DNA from: a virus | UHGV virus genome: UHGV-1809260 | DNA length: 16,081 nt | Reading direction: 5' to 3' (one strand) | In this document: positions 145 through 15,333 of the stretch, piece after piece | Numbering within the stretch: position 1 is the first letter of the stretch | How the letters are laid out: each line of letters opens with the position of its first letter | Program-made: the position numbers and the translations under genes | Notes under the pieces: model-generated | Database searches by the model: none | The model's input: only the letters and a program-made list of their open reading frames with translations | Told to the model about the DNA's origin: nothing

Positions 145-199
145 TTATGAATTCTGGTTAAAATCCATTCGATTATAAAAATGTATATCTCATGCTGTT

Positions 200-225
200 G
201 CCCGAACCCACTCGGGCTTTTTTTT
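200..225 (+). terminator. Rho-independent terminator (plus strand)
   Basis: Perfect hairpin gcccga-acccac-tcgggc (200-217) immediately followed by eight T (218-225). Confidence 0.6.
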
Positions 226-233
226 GCCCACAA

Positions 234-485
234 GAAAGCCCCTCCGGAGAGGGGCTAAAGCCGCGTATCTGTATCATCATGCACATGGTGCCGGGTGCCT
301 CCCGGTGAGTTCAGCCCGGTGCCACTAAACCCGCGTCATTCTCGTTTTGATAATCAGAGATTATACCGTCACCAGTCGCCCCTCCGCTCAGGGGGATTCA
401 CCATGCGAAATTTTTTTAACAAATGCCCAGTCTGACAGGCAACTGTCAACTTACTGAATTGTGAGCAACATAGCATTTAACGGGG
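234..485. repeat. Paralogous structured unit A (~250 bp), copy 1 of 2
   Basis: Shares conserved blocks with 721-969: gaaagcccctccggagaggggct; catggtgccgggtgcctcccggtgagttcag; gcccctccgc-cagggggattcaccatgc; ttttaacaaa; ctgaattgtgag; aacggg. The blocks are separated by divergent spacers. Contains perfect hairpins gcccctc-cgga-gaggggc and ccggg-tgcct-cccgg. Confidence 0.6.
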
Positions 486-529: not shown

Positions 530-720
530 TGGAAGGATAGCGGTCATGTGATGCCGGTTTCCCGGTAACTCAGCACCGGTATCTGAGTCAACGTTTTCTC
601 TACTGGGTCATTTCCGATACGCCCTGCCTGCTGACAGGCTTTCATCACATCTGAAAATATAGCACCCTGACTGATACTGTAGTACCCAAGGTTCCAGAAA
701 CTGTGATGTATCCGGCACAG

Positions 721-969
721 AAAAGCCCCTCCGGAGAGGGGCTGGAGAGTGGCGCTATGTGCCATTGCATGGTGCCGGGTGCCTCCCGGTGAGTTCAGTA
801 TCAGCACCTGAACCCGCACAGAAAGGATAAGGGTCGGTGACAAAACACCAGTTGCTGATTGCCCCTCCGCACAGGGGGATTCACCATGCCAGTTTCTTTT
901 AACAAACTCCCCGCAAACCAGACAACAGTCAACCGCCTGAATTGTGAGGTATTTAAAAATTTCAACGGG
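721..969. repeat. Paralogous structured unit B (~250 bp), copy 2 of 2
   Basis: Same conserved blocks and the same two hairpins as unit A, in the same order and orientation; on the minus strand the gcccctc-cgga-gaggggc hairpin is followed by uuuucugug. Confidence 0.6.
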
Positions 970-4785: not shown

Positions 4786-5108
4786 ACTTTCAGGCCCCTC
4801 TCATGTAACCAGTGGGTTGCACGCAGCCTTGCGTTTTCCTCACCGGCAAGCAGTGCGCGGATAATCCCGACCGCCTCGCTGTCGTCGTCCTTCATCGCAG
4901 TATGAAGCGTTATCCCCCGGGCCACGCCACGCTTTATCGTGATGACGCCTTTTTTCTCCAGTGCGCGAAGATGCTCCACCGCTGCATTCACCGAACGGTA
5001 TCCCAGCATGGTTGCCACCTCCTGATTGGTTGGCGGGAAGCCACGTTCTTTCTGATAAGAAATCAGCATATCCAGCACCTGCTGCTGGCATTGAGTTAAT
5101 GTCGTCAT
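4782..5108 (-). CDS. LexA N-terminal DNA-binding-domain-like protein lacking the S24 peptidase domain
   Basis: 108 aa; LTQCQQQVLDMLISYQKERGFPPTNQEVATMLGYRSVNAAVEHLRALEKKGVI parallels the LexA winged-helix domain. No Ser/Lys peptidase module follows. ATGA overlaps at both ends. Confidence 0.7.
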   Translation of the reverse strand: MTTLTQCQQQVLDMLISYQKERGFPPTNQEVATMLGYRSVNAAVEHLRALEKKGVITIKRGVARGITLHTAMKDDDSEAVGIIRALLAGEENARLRATHWLHERGLKV

Positions 5109-5758
5109 GCCGCCATCTCCCTGACCAGTTTTTCCGCCTGCTGGCGAGCCTGCGCCAGAAATGCCTCACCACATGCCTCAAGTTCATCGCGCCCGATGTA
5201 GCTGATTGCCGCTCCCTTCCAGGTCTTGTCGAAAACAGCAATAGCACCAGCGAAGAAAGCACCTGTTGGCACCTGCTTTTCGTCTTTCGGGATAAACCAG
5301 GCTGGCAGTTCAAAACCAATACGCCCGCGAATAAAAGCAATATGATCTGCATCTTCCGGCCACCACACTTCGCTGGTGGCCGCTTTGATCAGGAAAACAT
5401 AGCGCCCGCCTTTATCACGCATGGCACTGGCATGCTTCATGATGTAACGCATGCCGGTGATGTATTGTCCCTCATGCTGACTGGCGCGGCTGTACGGGGG
5501 ATTACCAAAGGCAGCACCTTTAAGCTCCGCAAGACGTTCTGACCAGTCATGTGCCAGCGCGTTGTCTTCCGCCGTGTAATACGCGGCACATTTGGCGTTA
5601 TCACCGTCAGTAAACAGATCCAGAACAAACGGGCCAAACAGGGTGTTAATTCCCCAGAAAATGTTGTCCGGCGTGCGCCACTGATCGCCCACTTCCTTCA
5701 GTTCATGGGCTGGTTTGTTCCGTAGTTCCACCAGCGCCTGGCAATATTTATTACTCAT
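5105..5758 (-). CDS. Phage DNA N6-adenine methyltransferase (Dam-like)
   Basis: FGNPPYS catalytic motif IV (NPPY) within the 228-aa ORF. Preferred start is the ATG at 5758 (MSNKYCQ...) with GGGGG Shine-Dalgarno; the track start at 5791 is GTG. Confidence 0.85.
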   Translation of the reverse strand: MSNKYCQALVELRNKPAHELKEVGDQWRTPDNIFWGINTLFGPFVLDLFTDGDNAKCAAYYTAEDNALAHDWSERLAELKGAAFGNPPYSRASQHEGQYITGMRYIMKHASAMRDKGGRYVFLIKAATSEVWWPEDADHIAFIRGRIGFELPAWFIPKDEKQVPTGAFFAGAIAVFDKTWKGAAISYIGRDELEACGEAFLAQARQQAEKLVREMAA

Positions 5759-6246
5759 TAAGCCCCCACGTAATTCCCTGACAGATACCACTCATCACCC
5801 GCTACAGCGCGCTTTCTGCTTTTCCGTAAGCACCGCTCACGACGCGCCAGAAAATTGTTTCGTTCTGGCTGGGAGTGGCTTTCACGGAATGCCGCCATCC
5901 ACACGGTTGCAGCACGACGGTATAAGCCCCTGGACTCCAGTTCTTCCGCCTGGCGGGTCAGGCACAAAATCACCCGGGGATCGTTAGTGCCGACATAGAA
6001 ATTGCGCACAGGTATGGTTTCAAGAACAGGTTGCAGTTTCTCCTCCTGCGATATCTCAGCCTGGTGTGGGAAATGTCTGCGTGTTTTCCCTTCACAACAG
6101 TGAGCCACACGGCCACTCTGACGTAACTTGCTTGCTGACTGCAGAACGCACTGTCGTGAGTAACCAGCAAAAGCATCCGCAATGTCACCTGAAGTACACC
6201 CCGGATGGGCTTCAATGAATTTCTGTACATCGTTCATCAGACTCAT
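5758..6246 (-). CDS. Hypothetical regulatory protein, possibly PerC/ANR-like
   Basis: ORF 5758-6252; preferred ATG at 6246 preceded by GGGGG. C-terminal LTRQAEELESRGLYRRAATVWMAAF resembles the motif of PerC-family small regulators (recollection, low certainty). Its stop overlaps the methyltransferase ATG (TAATG). Confidence 0.5.
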   Translation of the reverse strand: MSLMNDVQKFIEAHPGCTSGDIADAFAGYSRQCVLQSASKLRQSGRVAHCCEGKTRRHFPHQAEISQEEKLQPVLETIPVRNFYVGTNDPRVILCLTRQAEELESRGLYRRAATVWMAAFRESHSQPERNNFLARRERCLRKSRKRAVAGDEWYLSGNYVGA

Positions 6247-7528: not shown

Positions 7529-7749
7529 GCCACACCTCCCAGACGCTTAAACATTTTTCCGGAGCAAAAGGCTATAAGCGGCATACTGACGCGGTAATTA
7601 CGGCCCAGCGGTTCACAAATCACCTTCTGACATTCACGGTCAACCAGGCTAACACGTAGAACATGCCCTGCAGGCGTGGTGTACCACTGACCCGGACGAG
7701 GACAACGGAAAGTCTGATTGGTAAAACGTTTGAAAATATTCCGGATCAT
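7525..7749 (-). CDS. Hypothetical small protein (74 aa, four Cys)
   Basis: ATG at 7749 preceded by GGGGG with a 5-nt spacer; GTGA/ATGA overlaps with both neighbours. No family recognised. Confidence 0.55.
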   Translation of the reverse strand: MIRNIFKRFTNQTFRCPRPGQWYTTPAGHVLRVSLVDRECQKVICEPLGRNYRVSMPLIAFCSGKMFKRLGGVA

Positions 7750-8897
7750 TTGCGCCCCCTTGCCTCTGAAGGGTTCAGCGACAAATTTATGAGGCAGGCC
7801 AGCGCCGAAGCATCATTAATATAGTCATATAAGCTAACAGCCAGCGGAGATTCGGCTTTTGCCAACATAGGATAAAGCTGCTGCAGCCAGACCTGATGAA
7901 TTGATGAAATGTAGGAACAGAGAACGCTGGCGTTATGTGCAACGTCGCTCGGTACAGCAGGCTTTGAAAGCTGTTTCTCCATCTGGTTAAAGGCATTGAT
8001 GTATGCCTCTTTGAACTTGGCAGCACGTTTACCCGTGAAACCCATAGCAAGAAACGCAAAACCGTCGCGGGTGATTTGGTAACAAGGGAGTTTGCGGCCT
8101 GATGCGTCGGTGTATTCACTTAACACAAAAATGTGTTCAGTAAATTCAGCGGAACATTCGAGGTTTCTAATTCTATCTAAAACCCGCTCATGCCGTTTAG
8201 TAAAGTAATTAGCTACTGCAAGAGATGTGGTGACAACGCGACCATTGATAATCGTGATTTCAGGGTGAGATTGGGTTGGGAGAGTAGTCATGGTGACAGC
8301 CCCTATGTTGAATTCAATGAACTCACCACCAAGGCTTTCCACGACCATATAGGTGGTGAGACGTACAGGGGTGGAAATACCGGTCAACATAGAACCCGGC
8401 CCAACCGAAGTTGGCCCTGCACGCCCCACCATAATTTGGGCGTAACGATGCTCATGACACGAAAAAACCGCATGAGCGCGGTTGTGCTCTATATTGAATT
8501 TCGGGTTTCCACGCCCGGCACCCGCTTTATAAGGTGCCGGAACAGTGTAACGTCCCGGAATTGCAGAATCAATATGCTGGTGTTCCTTCACACTCAACAA
8601 AATCACGCCTGAATTTCCACAAAGGACTAAAGCACTCATGCGGGTAGTCTTTGCGAAGATAGATAACGCGCTGTGTTTCTGGCTCCCAACGAATAACATG
8701 GACATAAAGCCCTCTTCCGTCACGAAACCAGCGGTTAAGTTCCTGCACAACTCGCCCCCCACAGTCAGGTAAAGTTCTCTGTGGTTACTTACAGCCAGGT
8801 GATTTGGTAATCTGCATTCATGCCGTAACAACAGGTGTTCAGCGACGCTGACCACCAGCTGTTGCGACAAACGGTTATTTGCCGTTAAACTGTTCAT
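7746..8897 (-). CDS. Rha-family phage regulatory protein with an unusual ~200-aa N-terminal extension
   Basis: Residues ~203-305 (MTTLPTQSHPEITIINGRVVTTSLAVANYFTKRHERVLDRIRNLECSAEF...) match the Phage_pRha pattern. The frame stays open upstream to the ATG at 8897, which overlaps the upstream stop (ATGA) and has a GGAGA site. An internal ATG at 8291 also has an AGGGG site. Confidence 0.65.
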   Translation of the reverse strand: MNSLTANNRLSQQLVVSVAEHLLLRHECRLPNHLAVSNHRELYLTVGGELCRNLTAGFVTEEGFMSMLFVGSQKHSALSIFAKTTRMSALVLCGNSGVILLSVKEHQHIDSAIPGRYTVPAPYKAGAGRGNPKFNIEHNRAHAVFSCHEHRYAQIMVGRAGPTSVGPGSMLTGISTPVRLTTYMVVESLGGEFIEFNIGAVTMTTLPTQSHPEITIINGRVVTTSLAVANYFTKRHERVLDRIRNLECSAEFTEHIFVLSEYTDASGRKLPCYQITRDGFAFLAMGFTGKRAAKFKEAYINAFNQMEKQLSKPAVPSDVAHNASVLCSYISSIHQVWLQQLYPMLAKAESPLAVSLYDYINDASALACLINLSLNPSEARGRK

Positions 8898-9530: not shown

Positions 9531-9770
9531 TTAATAGCACTCAGGTAATCCATCATTTGGATTGGGGTAAATATCAGGACGCAGTTCATGAGGGGTCACG
9601 GACCAGTTTCCCAACTCACAAAGTTGTAAAACCCGTTCTGACGGGACTTGATTGTTAATTACCCAATTGGCGACGGATTGAGTGGACTTAAAACCAAAGC
9701 GACGGGCTACTTCAGATAAAGATTTTCCCGCAGCCTTTACTGCTTTCTCTGTGTAGTTTTGAGATGACAT
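9531..9770 (-). CDS. Cro-like (YdaS-like) HTH repressor
   Basis: 79 aa; AGGAG Shine-Dalgarno upstream of the ATG at 9770. HTH segment KSLSEVARRFGFKSTQSVANWV and a C-terminal HELRPDIYP motif. Divergent from the cI-like gene across an operator-containing intergenic region. Confidence 0.8.
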   Translation of the reverse strand: MSSQNYTEKAVKAAGKSLSEVARRFGFKSTQSVANWVINNQVPSERVLQLCELGNWSVTPHELRPDIYPNPNDGLPECY

Positions 9771-9840
9771 ACCTTTCTCCTCTGAAATTCAGAGGGATAA
9801 TGCTACTTAAAATAGCAAATTGCAACTACTTAAAATAGAA
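9771..9840. promoter_or_regulatory. Divergent PR/PRM-like promoter-operator region
   Basis: Two copies of CTACTTAAAATAG (9803-9815, 9826-9838) within 17-bp near-palindromes (TGCTACTTAAAATAGCA at 9801-9817). Separate palindrome CCTCTGAAATTCAGAGG at 9779-9795 overlapping the cro ribosome-binding site. Candidate PR on the minus strand: -35 TTGCAA (9820-9825), 17-bp spacer, -10 CATTAT (plus-strand coordinates 9797-9802). Confidence 0.5.
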
Positions 9841-10581
9841 ATGACTAGCGCGTGCGATGTGAGTAATCTTCTACCTATGGTAGAAGAACAGAAGTATCCA
9901 GATTTCGCCAAGAGACTAAACGAATTGATGACAATCAAAGGAATCTCTGTCACTCAACTCAAAAGTCTTGTGGGCGTTACATATGAAATGGCTCGTCGAT
10001 ACACAATCGGCGCAGCGAAGCCACGTGTCTCTGTCATGAGTAAACTTGCGTTGGCTCTTGGAGTATCAGCTTCATATCTAGAATATGGTGTTGGAGATAG
10101 AGAGGAATGTAAGGAAATGGCAAGCATCCCCAATCCAACAAAGCCCGATGTATACAGGATAGAAGTTTTGGATCTTAGCGTTAGCGCAGGACCTGGGACC
10201 TATATGCTTTCAGACTATGTTGATGTGCTCTACGCCATTGAGTTCACAACTGAACATGCCCGTTCTCTTTTCGGAAACCGTTCTCAGAATGATATAAAAG
10301 TTATGACGGTAAATGGAGATAGTATGTCCCCAACTCTTGTTTCCGGGGATCGATTGTTTGTCGACATTTCCGTTCGCCACTTCCAGACTGATGGAGTTTA
10401 CTCTTTCGTTTACGGTAAGACTTTCCATGTTAAACGTCTACAAATGCAAGGCAACAAACTAGCTGTTCTTTCGGATAACCCCGCCTATGAGAAATGGTAC
10501 ATTGATGAGAAGTCGCAAGATCAGCTTTATGTTATGGGTAAGGCACTGATTCATGAGTCGATTAAATATAATCGACTTTAA
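9841..10581 (+). CDS. cI-like prophage repressor (N-terminal HTH plus C-terminal S24 LexA-type autopeptidase)
   Basis: HTH segment ISVTQLKSLVGVTYEMARRYTIG; Ala-Gly cleavage site (SVSAGPG); catalytic Ser in VNGDSMSPT and Lys in FHVKRL. The track start at 9820 is TTG; I prefer the ATG at 9841, with 9877 as an alternative. Confidence 0.85.
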   Translation: MTSACDVSNLLPMVEEQKYPDFAKRLNELMTIKGISVTQLKSLVGVTYEMARRYTIGAAKPRVSVMSKLALALGVSASYLEYGVGDREECKEMASIPNPTKPDVYRIEVLDLSVSAGPGTYMLSDYVDVLYAIEFTTEHARSLFGNRSQNDIKVMTVNGDSMSPTLVSGDRLFVDISVRHFQTDGVYSFVYGKTFHVKRLQMQGNKLAVLSDNPAYEKWYIDEKSQDQLYVMGKALIHESIKYNRL

Positions 10582-10815
10582 TTAGGCATCTAGCAATCGT
10601 TAAAGCAAACGAGCACAGATGATAAAAGATAAGGATAGAAAATCTTTATACAAATTTTATTTGGCACATTGGTCCATAAAAATGGATTAACACTGAGCTG
10701 TTACCCTAAGTAAGAAAAGATAAAGACCATATGTTATCTTTGGGTGCGTTACTAACACAAAAAAAACCAAAATAAAACATAAATAATAGACAATTCTATA
10801 CAACAGGATACGATA

Positions 10816-11901
10816 ATGATTAATGAACGTACTGAAGCGACAGATGGGGTAGCAGATATGATTTCCACCAATACAAAATATTTAGTATGGAACAACAAAG
10901 GTGGTGTAGGAAAAACTTTTCTTACATATAATCTTGCCGTTGAGTTTGCTATATCTCATCCGGATCAAGATGTTGTGGTTATTGACTCATGCCCTCAATC
11001 AAACGTTTCAGAAATTATTCTTGGTGGCAATGGTACCGGGGAAGAAAATCTAAATAAATTGCGAGACAGAAATGTTACAATCGCAGGTTATATCAAGGAG
11101 CGTTTTAGCAAATCTCCTTTGTCTCGTTTAGGAAATGAATCTTCTTACTTTGTACGAGCCCATGATGTTAATGCAAAAATGCCAGAGAACTTATATATTC
11201 TTCCTGGTGATGTCGATCTTGATATCTGTTCACGCTTAATATCTCACATTGGCTCATCCCCAGTAAAAGAAGCATGGAAGAAAAGCCGATCTTTGCTGGT
11301 AGATCTAATAGCATCTTTTGAAGCCGATAAAAACATTTCTGACAGAGCAAAAACATTTTTTATTGATTGTAATCCAAGTTTTGCCAGCTACACAGAATTG
11401 GGAGTAGTCGCGGCAAATAGAATAATTATCCCTTGCACTGCCGATGCTGCATCAATTCGCGGAATAAAAAACCTTGTTAAACTTATTTATGGAGTGTCTA
11501 TTGACAAGTCAGAACAAGATGAAATGTTCTTAGATTTCAACAAAGAAGCAAAGCAAAACCTTATCGAACTACCTGAACTACACCTTTTCGTACAAAACCG
11601 CTCAAGAACTAATGAAAGTGATGCAGCAAAAGCATTCAAATCACATGCAGAAGAGATCAAAAGAATCACGGATGACCTGTTAAATACACATCCTCATCTG
11701 TTCACAAATGTGGCTACTTTCGAGAGAGTTCAAAATGTCAAAGATGGTAATACTCTTGCAGCAATAATAAACCATGAGGGATGCCCTTTAAGTAGGCTGC
11801 AGCATAAGAGTTACACTATCTATGGTATGGCGACCCAAGCTAATAGAGCACAAATTGAAGCACTAGAATCTGATGTTTCAACAGTAGTCAAGTGTCTGTA
11901 A
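10816..11901 (+). CDS. Orphan ParA/MinD/Soj-superfamily P-loop ATPase (361 aa) in an AT-rich island
   Basis: Deviant Walker A WNNKGGVGKT, Walker A'-like VVVIDSCPQSN and Walker B-like TFFIDCNPSF. About 130 extra C-terminal residues with no recognisable family. AGGA site upstream of the ATG. No ParB-like gene adjacent. Confidence 0.8.
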   Translation: MINERTEATDGVADMISTNTKYLVWNNKGGVGKTFLTYNLAVEFAISHPDQDVVVIDSCPQSNVSEIILGGNGTGEENLNKLRDRNVTIAGYIKERFSKSPLSRLGNESSYFVRAHDVNAKMPENLYILPGDVDLDICSRLISHIGSSPVKEAWKKSRSLLVDLIASFEADKNISDRAKTFFIDCNPSFASYTELGVVAANRIIIPCTADAASIRGIKNLVKLIYGVSIDKSEQDEMFLDFNKEAKQNLIELPELHLFVQNRSRTNESDAAKAFKSHAEEIKRITDDLLNTHPHLFTNVATFERVQNVKDGNTLAAIINHEGCPLSRLQHKSYTIYGMATQANRAQIEALESDVSTVVKCL

Positions 11902-11935
11902 TACAATAACCATGATTTAGAACGAACATAATTCT

Positions 11936-11962
11936 CGCCCGACCAACAGGTCGGGTTTTATA
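11936..11962 (+). terminator. Rho-independent terminator after the ParA-like gene
   Basis: Hairpin cccgacc-aaca-ggtcggg (11938-11955) followed by tttta. Confidence 0.6.
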
Positions 11963-12189
11963 CTCGTAGCCTGCTTAATAACACTGTTCCTGACCCGTTG
12001 TATCCATAGTTCCCACTATTTTCCCCAAAATTATTACTATCTAATTAACCTAATAATTAAACCAAAACAAAAGACACTCGATATTTTCTATACGTAACTA
12101 CACCACATCCCCCCATCTGTGAAAAACCTTTTAATTCATAACGTTATATAGAAAACTAAAAATTAAATACACACTTCTACTTTTTGTTG

Positions 12190-12218
12190 TTGATTTTTGC
12201 TACTTTTAGTAGCATCAT
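12190..12218 (+). promoter_or_regulatory. OL/PL-like operator-promoter
   Basis: Perfect 17-bp palindrome TGCTACTTTTAGTAGCA (12198-12214), closely related to the OR sites. Flanking TTGATT (12190-12195) and CATCAT (12213-12218) mirror the proposed PR -35/-10 with a near-identical 17-bp spacer. Confidence 0.4.
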
Positions 12219-12239
12219 TATCTGAACAAACAACAGACT

Positions 12240-12630
12240 GTTGTTAACGAAAGGTTGGTTGTAACACGGCGTATGGCACATGCGTCGTTAGCGGTCTGGG
12301 GACGTTAAAGGGGACAATCCACTCCTTGCTCGGGCAAACAAACCAGGTAGCCGGAATGTGCAAGTCAATGATGATGCTGATAAGACGCCTAACCAGCGTG
12401 GCGATTCGGTTTGACGCTTGGGAAGAGACCAGGGTGCAACGATGAGGGCATTTATGGAGCCGCGACAAAGTGTGGTGCCGTAACTGGCTAAGTGCTCTCA
12501 GCGTTGTGGTAATCCGCGAAATGGCGCGGCGGTAAGTATGGCGGGGTTACTCTTTCCCCGTTGAGGACACCGGATTGTCAGGTTGACCATACGCCTGAGT
12601 GACAACCCCACCACAACAGCCACTGCTTTG
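12240..12630 (+). other. Long GC-rich untranslated leader (possible structured RNA)
   Basis: No plus-strand ORF longer than 25 codons between OL/PL and the internal terminator; composition contrasts sharply with the AT-rich island upstream. The listed ORFs crossing it are minus-strand or frame read-through. Confidence 0.35.
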
Positions 12631-12678
12631 GCGGTACCAGTTTGTACACTTGCTTCCGGCTGGTACCGCTCTTTTTAC
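12631..12678 (+). terminator. Strong intrinsic terminator / attenuator inside the PL leader
   Basis: Perfect 10-bp stem gcggtaccag ... ctggtaccgc (12631-12640 / 12660-12669) with a 19-nt loop, followed by tctttttac. Confidence 0.55.
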
Positions 12679-14194: not shown

Positions 14195-14731
14195 ATGTCA
14201 TTTATTAAAACTTTTTCCGGGAAGCATTTTTATTATGACAAGATAAATAAAGACGACATCGTTATTAACGATATCGCGGTTTCCCTTTCAAATATCTGTC
14301 GCTTTGCAGGACATCTTTCACACTTCTACAGTGTCGCCCAGCATGCGGTGCTTTGCAGCCAGCTGGTGCCGCAGGAATTTGCTTTTGAAGCGTTAATGCA
14401 TGATGCAACAGAAGCGTATTGCCAGGACATCCCCGCACCACTGAAACGACTTCTTCCTGACTATAAACGGATGGAAGAAAAAATAGACGCCGTAATCCGT
14501 GAGAAATACGGGTTACCTCCTGTTATGAGCACGCCAGTGAAATATGCCGATCTCATCATGCTGGCAACCGAACGCCGCGATCTCGGGCTTGATGATGGCT
14601 CTTTCTGGCCAGTACTGGAAGGTATCCCGGCAACAGAAATGTTCAAAGTTATTCCACTGGCTCCGAGCCATGCCTACGGGATGTTTATGGAGCGCTTTAA
14701 CGAGTTATCGGAGTTACGCACATGCGCATGA
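14195..14731 (+). CDS. HD-domain phosphohydrolase (YfdR-like putative 5'-deoxynucleotidase)
   Basis: H...HD metal-binding signature (SVAQHAV ... LMHDATEAY). Preferred start is the ATG at 14195 (MSFIKTF...) preceded by GGAGAA, giving 178 aa; the listed ORF starts 21 codons upstream. Confidence 0.75.
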   Translation: MSFIKTFSGKHFYYDKINKDDIVINDIAVSLSNICRFAGHLSHFYSVAQHAVLCSQLVPQEFAFEALMHDATEAYCQDIPAPLKRLLPDYKRMEEKIDAVIREKYGLPPVMSTPVKYADLIMLATERRDLGLDDGSFWPVLEGIPATEMFKVIPLAPSHAYGMFMERFNELSELRTCA

Positions 14732-15333
14732 ATGTTTTCGAAATGGAAGGGTTTCTTCGCGGGAAATGTGTACCACGAGATCTGAAAGTGAATGAAACAA
14801 ATGCTGAATATCTGGTGCGTAAATTTGCTGAAGCGGAGGCCAAGATTTTGGCTCTGTCCGAAGACCAACAGAAAGCGATTGAGTCAATTAAGCAGGCTGA
14901 TGCAGCTGTTAAGTTGGCACACGAGAAGTTTTCGGCGCTGGCGGCGGAGAATGCGGGGCTGAAACACGCAATGGCCGTAACTCTTGAGCATGTGTCGGTC
15001 ACGGATGCAGGGCAGGCTGGTGTTGCTGCAATGATTATCAACGATGCCCTGCACCACAGCGAAACTCCAGCCACCGATGCTTTCCTGGCTGAAATTCGTG
15101 CGGAAGCACGCAACGAGGGGATTAACTATACCGCAAGCCGTCTTGCTGCTGCTTTCAATCACGGATTTATCAATAAGTCTTTACGTGAAGTTTTCGACGT
15201 TACACGCATGATTCTGTCAGCGAAAGAAGAGTTGGCTAATGAACCACACCCGATTGATGGCCTGTCCGGTGAATATGCGGAGAAATCCCTAGAAGAATGG
15301 GCGGAACAGATTCGCAAAGGAGGCAACCAGTGA
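14722..15333 (+). CDS. Hypothetical phage protein (203 aa), alanine-rich, predicted helical
   Basis: ORF overlaps the upstream stop; GGAG upstream of the ATG. No family recognised. Confidence 0.55.
   Translation: MRMNVFEMEGFLRGKCVPRDLKVNETNAEYLVRKFAEAEAKILALSEDQQKAIESIKQADAAVKLAHEKFSALAAENAGLKHAMAVTLEHVSVTDAGQAGVAAMIINDALHHSETPATDAFLAEIRAEARNEGINYTASRLAAAFNHGFINKSLREVFDVTRMILSAKEELANEPHPIDGLSGEYAEKSLEEWAEQIRKGGNQ

Follow-up and report, generated by a model that had tools for sequence, protein, structure and literature searches.

Gene content of the cI–OL interval

The window, i.e. the whole stretch of 16,081 nucleotides that was analysed, contains the features collected in Table 1. As described in an earlier note on this DNA, a cI-like gene stops at position 10581 and an OL-like operator is present at 12198–12214. 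The former encodes an S24 repressor, and the latter matches the two OR copies at 9801–9817 and 9824–9840. OL and OR regions are also related by an inverted repeat (I1) of 47 nucleotides with 77% complementarity. PGAP places the start of the repressor at 9877, and in identical loci this ORF is annotated as an XRE family regulator. The slot is bounded on the right by OL, from which the PL operon extends to the right. The AT-rich stretch that had been noticed between cI and OL was confirmed by windowed GC, with values of 0.33–0.40 across 10401–12400 compared to 0.41–0.55 (about 0.5) in the flanks.

Table 1. Features of the cI–OL slot and its surroundings (positions in the window)
Feature	Position	Strand	Remarks
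cro	9531–9770	−	OR operators sit between cro and cI
OR operators, two 17-nt copies	9801–9817, 9824–9840		repeat family D1/D4, inverted repeat I1
cI-like repressor (HTH and S24 peptidase)	9820–10581	+	from ORF and translation; left border of the slot
AT-rich non-coding leader, 234 nt	10582–10815	+	GC 0.33; all ORFs ≤48 aa, implausible
Shine-Dalgarno AGGA	10805–10808	+	precedes start 10816; spacing kept in enteric alleles
Solo ParA-type ATPase, DxCPQ family, 361 aa	10816–11901	+	intact ORF
Deviant Walker A NNKGGVGKT, aa 26–34	10891–10917	+	signature Lys28, P-loop Lys33
Switch I (A') motif IDSCPQSN, aa 56–63	10981–11004	+	Cys59 codon at 10990–10992
Walker B FFIDCNPS, aa 181–188	11356–11379	+	Asp184, Asn186, Pro187 and Ser188 invariant
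NRSRTN, aa 261–266	11596–11613	+	Asn261, Ser263 and Arg264 invariant
Intrinsic-terminator-like hairpin and T-run	11937–11961	+	8 bp with 6 G-C pairs, 36 nt past the stop codon
AT-rich non-coding island tail	11962–12146		no ORF, no Rfam match
OL operators	12175–12214		clear copy 12198–12214, weaker copy 12175–12191; family D1, inverted repeat I1

The island occupies exactly the interval from the cI stop codon (10581) to OL (from about 12147). The claim that it carries one gene plus its own terminator holds, since the plus-strand ORF at 10816–11901 is followed by a hairpin at 11937–11956 and then a T-run. No second credible ORF was found in the island, and an Rfam scan of it gave no match even at E ≤ 1.

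Homology to sister prophages ends at 10574–10583, i.e. where cI stops, and starts again at 12147 with the OL block, which is conserved in these prophages. When the slot was compared across related prophages, as the note had recommended, its content differed from one to the next. One sister prophage of E. coli, with a 91% identical cI, has another ParA-like gene in this position. The product of this gene shares 23% identity with the window protein (E = 9e-14), looks unrelated to it and occurs in 109 genomes. Because of its divergence this second allele was missed by distant blastn searches and was found via synteny. Another sister prophage contains three small ORFs between cI and OL. The suggested equivalence to the rexAB position as a site for cargo is supported by these breakpoints, and the cI–OL slot is a genuine cargo hotspot. 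The island shows the marks of a moron, namely discrete insertion between conserved modules, atypical base composition and a terminator of its own; it represents one-gene cargo (a "moron"), acquired by horizontal transfer, in an integrated lambdoid prophage of E. coli.

A ParA-type ATPase with a cysteine in switch I

Pfam profiles place the protein in the ParA/MinD superfamily (AAA_31, 3e-16; CbiA, 1.5e-8), and phrog_164 matches it across residues 9–350 (2e-46). The former view that about 130 C-terminal residues form an unassignable domain is not supported. The three-dimensional fold is that of ParA/MinD proteins. Among known structures, DNA-segregation ParAs match it best, a viral structure library returned generic ParA proteins and kinases only, and databases label the protein a ParA-like partition protein.

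The deviant Walker A box (KGGVGKT) recognized in the note is confirmed by an alignment of 40 family sequences, in which eight of the nine positions are invariant, Lys28 and Lys33 among them, and Gly29 is kept in at least 90%. This motif is present in all but two of 85 family proteins, and both exceptions are disrupted copies. Concerning the ParA-like A' and B motifs that were also claimed, the Walker B motif stands with an invariant Asp184. The A' motif, however, is present in an atypical form, DxCPQ instead of DxDPQ. Within its context (VVVIDSCPQ) Asp57 is present and invariant, but the two acidic residues of a DxD switch I are not both found, as the second position is Cys59. The variant DxCPQ[SA]N occurs in 83 of 83 family copies in which the motif was found intact. 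Cys59 aligns to Asp in the IHE3034 ParA-like protein and in pdb entry 3pg5. The latter is the uncharacterised DIP2308 from Corynebacterium diphtheriae (361 aa), which has about 20% identity to the window protein and keeps the canonical DCDPQ in place of DSCPQ.

Arg264 of the NRSRTN motif presumably sits at the position of Arg189 in B. subtilis Soj, a residue for non-specific DNA binding. If this correspondence holds, the window protein shares the DNA-binding arginine with partition proteins of the ParA/Soj kind (type Ib ParA, Soj, McdA, pSM19035 δ), in addition to the deviant Walker A with its signature lysine and the Walker B motif. Differences from these proteins are about 100 residues of insertions and the invariant Cys in place of the catalytic second Asp of DxDPQ.

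A rare family conserved across phyla

Together with its sequence relatives, the protein makes up a rare family, about 345 aa in length, with DxCPQ for DxDPQ as hallmark. At E ≤ 1e-30, 124 clusters among 1.84 billion representatives belong to it. They reach more than ten phyla, with 418 species matches in bacteria and archaea, and the identity across phyla is 55–65% with 83 invariant columns in the alignment of 40 sequences. The GC content of the gene lies at the median 10 points below its flanks; in 49 of 61 loci it falls short of them by more than 3 points. A search of the phage nucleotide collection with the island gave no match at the DNA level, and protein matches were obtained in five phage records only. 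Ten longer matches (438–595 aa) were considered as informative domain fusions and discarded, as Pfam found AAA_31/CbiA only. Those longer matches in which the motif was read carry the canonical DxDPQ and therefore belong to a neighbouring family.

In comparison to the Klebsiella allele, the gene is under strong purifying selection (pS 0.80 with synonymous sites saturated, pN 0.11). Among 5426 complete E. coli genomes 71 carry it with an identity of 99% or more; none of these copies is truncated, and their identity is never below 99.6%. Of 73 places of the gene in E. coli, 72 are chromosomal. The exact protein is found on at least 1000 contigs. This pattern of conservation already contradicts the explanation that the gene is a silent, decaying passenger without function. 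E. coli often silences foreign DNA of high AT content, and one copy, from Leclercia, is split into ORFs of 62 and 232 aa, which would both fit such decay. However, a pS of about 0.8 against the low pN, the identity across phyla with its invariant columns, the intact state of all 71 E. coli copies and the frequency of the exact protein argue against it, and we regard it as extremely unlikely.

Genomic contexts of the relatives

The gene is nearly always solitary across about 85 loci. Phages of E. coli, Klebsiella (e.g. ST11-VIM1phi8.2), Siccibacter, Pseudomonas (e.g. phi297, 38% identity) and Salmonella (e.g. S.Inf 5-2, 30% identity) carry family members right after cI. Further copies were found on the opposite strand within a lambdoid nin region, in an Acinetobacter prophage adjoining HicAB, in a primase-bearing element adjoining DinI and IS200, and in a Campylobacter integrative element. 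Many solitary copies are located among housekeeping genes and not in defence islands. Clustering of the ORFs within 5 kb at the roughly 85 loci yielded no universal partner gene, and the tightly linked downstream genes are mostly housekeeping enzymes according to a Pfam scan. A shared cis element was not found in the flanks of 39 homologues; what these flanks have in common is limited to pairs of nearly identical sequences and a short stretch resembling a terminator.

Two kinds of neighbour recur. In three betaproteobacterial relatives (L074, L078 and L095) a HEPN_RiboL-PSP RNase gene follows directly downstream in the same operon, and an IS1595 transposase adjoins the gene in 7–11 alphaproteobacterial loci. 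These associations, of which that with IS1595 is persistent, would suit a selfish or addictive element, i.e. one half of a toxin-antitoxin-like pair whose partner is missing or encoded at another site, or a gene that assists transposition or is carried along by it. In addition, dyads of a ParA/Soj antitoxin and a HEPN toxin have been predicted (Anantharaman et al. 2013, PMC3710099), although the published dyad uses the MAE_18760 HEPN family and the three distant relatives have the RiboL-PSP type. More than 85% of the examined loci, however, have neither HEPN nor transposase next to the gene. The window gene also has no HEPN partner, its island has no second ORF, and the solo gene is under strong purifying selection across phyla. 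Consequently, an addictive or selfish role is improbable in our view.

Lack of a partition partner

Neither a ParB gene nor a centromere repeat had been noticed before, and the proposed search of the flanks and of homologous prophages for ParB/parS led to the same result. No ParB was found in the window, in near-identical annotated loci, in the complete STEC17-183 prophage or in the roughly 85 homologue loci. Centromere-like repeats were not detected in the window, where Tandem Repeats Finder gives only a low-score A-rich run at 10754–10786; the repeats present otherwise are the cI operators. The STEC17-183 prophage, which was examined in full, is integrated and carries integrase and excisionase genes. 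Partition ParA/Soj proteins have a ParB, McdB or ω partner as well as a centromere and are encoded in replicon-maintenance operons, whereas the window gene has neither and is a solitary mobile cassette. The island is not a partition module, and as far as gene content and repeats can tell, a ParA-type family here has neither ParB nor centromere.

An ordinary partition ATPase, either as the remnant of a ParABS system or with ParB and parS located elsewhere, is therefore largely refuted and highly improbable. The structural matches to DNA-segregation ParAs and the partition label in databases agree with such a function. Furthermore, the ParA protein of pSM19035 (δ) partners with the transcriptional repressor ω as centromere-binding protein, hence cI could in principle act as partner. 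Most copies, however, have no cI neighbour. The missing ParB and repeat arrays, the chromosomal location of nearly all E. coli copies, the int and xis genes of the complete prophage and the replacement of the catalytic Asp for ParB-stimulated cycling also disagree with partition.

Expression signals

A terminator-like site was not found between cI and the ParA gene, hence the cI transcript could continue into the latter. In the window, no sigma-70 promoter is conspicuous ahead of the gene, and shuffled sequence yields more promoter-like sites; a weak site (9/12) is present at 10787–10814. Upstream of the homologues an extended −10-like motif was found in 11 of 36 cases versus 2.6 expected. Translation of the ParA gene could start at 10816 (361 aa) or at 10858 (Met15, 347 aa). 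Non-enteric homologues begin at the position of the second candidate, and some database records annotate the 347-aa form. The DNA homology to the Klebsiella/Siccibacter alleles begins at 10855/10867, just by this start candidate.

Comparison with other prophage cargo and possible service to the prophage or host

The window gene shares slot and orientation with lambda rexAB-type cargo, 3' of cI with a terminator just before OL, and in both cases the content is variable among related prophages. There is no relation in sequence or fold to the window protein, for which exclusion is a candidate role only. Another example of lysogen-expressed cargo between cI and OL/PL is BstA in Salmonella BTP1.

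Regulatory roles are established for ParA proteins of the partition type, for instance that of B. subtilis Soj on DnaA, and lambda RexA acts on the CI/Cro switch. The window protein could also serve the prophage or the host, as a nucleoid-bound ATPase which tunes the lysis-lysogeny decision, induction, host replication, division or nucleoid organisation. This is conceivable, although we lean against it. In at least five phages a family member directly follows cI, and a gene in this position would be co-regulated with the repressor. In Gifsy-1 of S. Typhimurium 14028s a ParA-like gene and two partner genes (STM14_3218–3220) adjoin the repressor; the RtcR RNA-repair response on SOS requires this locus, which also reduces the phage yield 2–4 fold, so that both a host stress response and the yield of its own prophage are altered (PMC9879122). 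It is strain-variable and, unlike the neighbouring lytic genes, not induced by mitomycin C (PMC9879122). Compared by description, STM14_3218 and the window gene both encode a ParA-family ATPase without ParB beside a prophage repressor, but STM14_3218 is shorter (840 bp) and two further genes are implicated, in contrast to the single gene in the window. A survey of lambdoid genomes also suggested that distant ParA/ParB relatives in early-left regions have changed their function (PMC12315714), which is in line with a service to prophage or host. On the other hand, most members of the family are solitary genes that do not belong to a prophage, and their hosts come from many phyla; therefore their function cannot hinge on one phage circuit or on one partner in the host. 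Extreme mobility and foreign GC are also more typical of conflict genes.

Exclusion or defence as the leading reading

Lysogen-expressed exclusion or defence is the reading that we favour, with a confidence that falls just short of even. It would account for an island that fills the cI–OL slot exactly, with its own terminator and none after cI, and for the use of this slot as a hotspot together with the recurrence of the gene downstream of cI in independent phages. Wide transfer, low GC, strong selection and the lack of a shared neighbour may likewise be counted in its favour, as may the links to conflict systems through HEPN operons and IS1595 neighbours, the predicted ParA/Soj-HEPN dyads and the Gifsy-1 locus. 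The moron-like and island contexts of other copies, the fold and the DxCPQ hallmark also speak for it. Weighing against it are the many solitary copies in housekeeping surroundings, the want of a standout sigma-70 promoter in the window and of a PADLOC v2 match, and the fact that genes in the cI–OL slot can serve the phage's own switch. With PADLOC-DB v2.0.0 no significant match was obtained (only Drt5 with E = 0.007 over 90 residues), and the family relatives gave no matches with PADLOC v2. A single-gene ParA-type defence system is not described in the publications open to search; both results agree with the earlier note, whose author knew of none.

Regarding a mechanism, the protein would be made in the lysogen by read-through of the cI transcript, as in the case of lambda rexAB, or from a separate promoter. 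It probably binds ATP and forms a nucleotide-sandwich dimer, as suggested by the invariant residues Lys28, Lys33, Asp57 and Asp184. This dimer may bind DNA non-specifically, considering the invariant Arg264 and the partition-type fold. Since Cys59 replaces the catalytic Asp, ATP hydrolysis is presumably slow or dependent on a cue, which would make the protein a switch that stays on DNA for long, as opposed to an oscillator driven by ParB. A Cys could still support hydrolysis, and slow turnover is what we infer from the exchange. In MinD and Soj, replacement of the equivalent Asp leads to hydrolysis-dead, trapped ATP-bound dimers (PMC13246001), and the structural matches of the window protein include the trap mutants HpSoj D41A and McdA D38A from the PDB. 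In conflicts between mobile elements, the putative switch would exclude or abort superinfecting phages or plasmids, with the DNA of the invader, ParB-like proteins or replication proteins as possible targets.

In its most specific form, the DxCPQ ParA would be the first single-protein ParA-type factor of immunity or exclusion: an ATP dimer with attenuated hydrolysis that clamps invader DNA, or is triggered by the ParB-like or replication protein of the invader, blocks the phage or plasmid and is spread through bacteria and archaea by prophages, satellites and IS elements. We consider this scheme unlikely.

Significance

ParA-type ATPases are textbook positioning machines, the ATP cycle of which is driven by a partner protein. 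Throughout the present family the partner has been lost and the catalytic aspartate replaced, and the gene is solitary yet strongly selected. This gene moves among phages, satellites, IS elements and the chromosomes of many phyla. If the protein tunes lysogeny or host replication, it would represent a new kind of prophage-host regulator. If exclusion or defence is its true role, a new protein class would be added to bacterial immunity, and the nucleoid-binding switch would have found a new use. This would also account for the "orphan parA" genes that are repeatedly annotated beside phage repressors, among others in Stx-converting prophages of pathogenic E. coli.

Anatomy of the cI-OL island

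The window covers part of a lambdoid E. coli prophage of the CPS-53/yfdP-yfdQ-yfdR type. Two 17-nt operators are situated between the divergent cro-like and cI-like genes, and a third copy, OL, was found within a 47-nt block in which the OR region recurs in inverted orientation. From the cI stop codon to OL there is a single ORF, which encodes a ParA-type protein and has a hairpin plus T-run downstream of it. The GC content is 0.33-0.40 for windows across 10401-12400, compared to 0.41-0.55 on both flanks. Neither a second credible ORF nor repeat arrays were found in the island, and no Rfam family matched it even at E<=1. The ORF, operator, hairpin and GC data thus bear out the coordinates and the description of the island in the earlier note.

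Positions of features in the window and in compared loci
Feature	Sequence	Position	Strand
AsxR (Rfam)	window	170-222	+
STnc100, first copy (Rfam)	window	226-435	-
STnc100, second copy (Rfam)	window	713-918	-
Rha-family ORF, 383 aa	window	7746-8897	
C4 antisense RNA (Rfam, 82 bits)	window	8349-8436	-
isrK (Rfam, 62 bits)	window	8461-8537	-
cro-like gene	window	9531-9770	-
17-nt operator	window	9801-9817	
cI-like S24 repressor	window	9820-10581	+
17-nt operator	window	9824-9840	
ParA-type ORF, 361 aa	window	10816-11901	+
Hairpin with T-run	window	11937-11961	
Third operator copy, OL	window	12198-12214	
GC-rich stretch, ~400 nt	window	12245-12640	+
rdgC homologue	L001, strain STEC17-183	14219-15136	
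358-aa ParA-like gene	L014, E. coli IHE3034 (NC_017628.1)	4973-6049	
Split ParA-type gene	L027, Leclercia adecarboxylata NCTC13032	~7971-8833	
HEPN_RiboL-PSP gene	L074	9026-9628	
HEPN_RiboL-PSP gene	L078	3518-4123	
HEPN_RiboL-PSP gene	L095	1685-2287	

Several further elements were observed in the prophage. The GC-rich stretch just 3' of OL/PL is without a convincing ORF, and many phages, among them cdtI, Ayreon, 2H10 and Stx2c-converting phages, share it at 98-99.7% identity. It has no Rfam match and folds slightly better than shuffled sequence (z -1.9); one possibility is a structured PL leader or antitermination element. The C4 and isrK matches fall within the region of the Rha-family ORF, an arrangement resembling a P1/P7-type antisense-controlled antirepressor module and so, presumably, a second immunity layer of the prophage. 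Rfam also reports AsxR ('anti-stx2 sRNA', right at threshold) and two copies of STnc100 at the window's left end. In strain STEC17-183, which has an identical cI-ParA-OL block, the PL operon opens with an rdgC homologue, not with yfdP-yfdQ; the fold of RdgC resembles that of lambda RexA (PMC12315714).

The slot is a cargo hotspot

Of 5426 complete E. coli genomes, 71 carry the island at >=99% identity, with its gene annotated as 'ParA family protein' (WP_000606712.1). It occupies 73 places in E. coli, 72 of them chromosomal. The cI allele of the window is likewise found in 71 genomes at >=99% identity, and 133 further genomes carry a 91-92% identical allele. The equal numbers suggest that island and cI allele travel together, the two genome sets having been matched by count.

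Related prophages hold other content. In IHE3034 a 91%-identical cI is followed by a different 358-aa ParA-like protein (WP_000167381.1; 23% identity over 300 residues, E 9e-14), the gene of which occurs in 109/5426 genomes. Thus, two distinct solo ParA-like families alternate at one slot. The IHE3034 protein has a canonical DLDSQ motif, and its gene is followed by a convergent 170-aa gene with a weak sub-threshold TMF_TATA_bd match and no significant Pfam match. Strain CX08 contains three small ORFs instead. In pairwise DNA comparisons with these sisters, homology ends at 10574-10583 and restarts at 12147 or 12175; consequently, the swap is limited to the cI-OL interval. It corresponds to the rexAB position of lambda, where the earlier note had placed the slot. 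The interval is a cargo hotspot.

In O157:H7 146N4 and O157 FDAARGOS_293, the ParA gene and stxA1a are among the features of the best whole-window match; the gene may lie in or beside an Stx1a-converting prophage in these strains.

A ParA gene without a partition partner

PHROGs assigns residues 9-350 of the protein to phrog_164, 'ParA-like partition protein' (2e-46). As the earlier note had claimed, the gene stands without ParB and centromere repeats: no ParB was found in the annotated near-identical loci or in the complete integrated STEC17-183 prophage (int/xis through tail fibres), the island has no repeat arrays, and no shared motif was found in the DNA flanking the homologues. For phi297, a parA without parB was already remarked on by its authors (PMC3564109), and a lambdoid survey describes very distant ParA and ParB relatives as 'encoded separately' in a few early-left regions (PMC12315714). 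The window gene is not a partition module, and we consider a role in ordinary partition extremely improbable. In this hotspot it is a solo, intact gene of foreign origin that encodes a ParA fold.

Fold and ATPase switch

Pfam matches are AAA_31 (3e-16) and CbiA. An AlphaFold2 model from 40 homologues is confident (pLDDT 87, pTM 0.88), and its match to DNA-segregation ParAs ranks above those to MinD (20.7), NifH (19.0) and Get3 (13.3), in agreement with Foldseek. Alignment columns extend along the full length of the protein, and its C-terminal third (VKDGNTLAAIINHEG, Y333, Y336, TQAN) is conserved like the remainder. Hence the C-terminal 130 residues, previously regarded as unassignable, complete the ParA fold, and the extra length of the protein is due to insertions.

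Cys59 aligns with the second Asp of the canonical DxDPQ switch I in PDB entry 3pg5 and in the IHE3034 protein. Among 85 family proteins (29-100% identity, more than 10 phyla) the motif is found in 84, 83 of these 84 reading D-x-C-P-Q-[SA]-N; the deviant and the motif-less protein are both disrupted copies. In database matches, DxCPQ is present in 119 of 120 close homologues and in 83 representative clusters, with Ser in two. Weaker, longer matches (438-477 aa) have DxDPQ, so that the Cys substitution marks the family boundary. The catalytic Asp is replaced family-wide.

MinD and Soj with the D40A exchange no longer hydrolyse ATP and stay locked as nucleotide-sandwich dimers (PMC13246001, citing Leonard 2005 and Wu 2011); two trap mutants, HpSoj D41A and McdA D38A, also came up in the structural comparison. 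Signature Lys28, P-loop Lys33, Asp57 and Asp184 are invariant in the alignment, as is Arg264 in NRSRTN, presumably at the position of the DNA-binding Arg189 of B. subtilis Soj. The protein would be an ATP-dependent dimer with non-specific DNA binding. From the sequence we infer that Cys59 affects hydrolysis so as to give a slow ATP switch on DNA; slow or conditional turnover would be consistent with the absence of any ParB-type activator.

Distribution and selection

Among 1.84 billion representative proteins, a profile search found 124 clusters at E<=1e-30, rising to 503 at 1e-10; the DxCPQ family is rare inside the enormous ParA superfamily. In a scan of one genome per species, 418 species had a relative, including Proteobacteria, Bacteroidota, Planctomycetota, Verrucomicrobiota, Spirochaetota, Firmicutes, Cyanobacteria, Acidobacteriota, Chloroflexota and archaea. 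At least 1000 contigs encode the exact E. coli protein, and Salmonella has close variants of it.

Identities of 55-65% persist between proteins of distant phyla, and 83 alignment columns are invariant. Between the window and Klebsiella alleles (83% amino-acid identity) pS is saturated at 0.80, versus a pN of 0.11. The gene has a median GC 10 points below its flanks; the deficit exceeds 3 points in 49 of 61 loci, and one locus has an excess of more than 3 points. The sequence is strongly selected and its distribution horizontally mobile. A decaying gene, for which the Leclercia copy (ORFs of 62 aa and 232 aa, 88% identity) is the only clearly disrupted close example, is hardly credible. Together, conservation and distribution bear the signature of a functional gene spreading horizontally as a single cassette.

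Genomic contexts

When all ORFs up to 5 kb from the gene were clustered across about 85 loci, none proved to be a universal neighbour. Six loci have the gene directly 3' of an S24 cI-type repressor: E. coli, a Klebsiella genome contig and Klebsiella phage ST11-VIM1phi8.2 (same allele), Siccibacter, Pseudomonas phi297 and Salmonella phage S.Inf 5-2. In another lambdoid prophage it lies in the nin region on the opposite strand, and in an Acinetobacter prophage it adjoins HicAB. One element combines it with a D5/P4-type primase, DinI and IS200, and a Campylobacter integrative element with SNase, ParE and RhuM genes; in Pantoea it belongs to a block of mostly unannotated ORFs that looks phage-like. 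Aggregatibacter, Moraxella and others have a lone copy among housekeeping genes, sometimes adjoining tRNA-like genes as judged by eye.

In 11 of 36 loci the 120 nt ahead of the gene contain an extended -10-like element (2.6 +/- 1.5 in shuffles), one of these elements lying in an apparent tRNA gene; none occurred in the far-upstream control or in the window's own leader.

Two sub-clades come with a partner gene, and both contexts bear on a selfish, toxin-antitoxin or transposition-linked role. An IS1595-family (ISXO2-like DDE) transposase adjoins the gene (<100 bp, either orientation) in 7-11 alphaproteobacterial loci (L024, L051, L053, L056, L059, L062, L070; also L055, L061, L087) despite 65-73% nucleotide divergence, and the ParA gene may be a passenger of such elements. 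A convergent 143-aa ORF is often also present there. In three betaproteobacterial loci a gene for a 200-aa HEPN_RiboL-PSP protein (predicted RNase) begins 0-3 nt 3' of the ParA stop codon, which suggests a two-gene ParA-HEPN variant within the DxCPQ family. ParA/Soj-HEPN dyads are predicted toxin-antitoxin systems (PMC3710099). The window gene, however, does not have a matching architecture, and such a role is improbable for it.

Possible function

The closest precedents are these dyads and STM14_3218-3220 in the Gifsy-1 immunity region of S. Typhimurium 14028s, where a ParB-less ParA-family gene adjoins the repressor gene gfoR. Together with the region's two small genes it is required for activation of the RtcR RNA-repair regulon during SOS, and the locus lowers phage yield 2-4 fold (PMC9879122). 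The architecture of the window gene differs from the published description of this locus. A role in lysogeny or host physiology is possible, but we consider it rather unlikely.

Neither the protein nor its relatives matched any PADLOC v2 model. The large defence-screen literature, so far as searchable, does not mention ParA, MinD, Soj, AAA_31 or CbiA, and no literature pairing 'ParA-like ATPase' with 'phage defense' was found. We tentatively favour exclusion or defence: the gene would be expressed in the lysogen and would play a part in conflicts among mobile elements. The finding itself stands, and its interest exceeds that of a routine 'ParA family protein' annotation.
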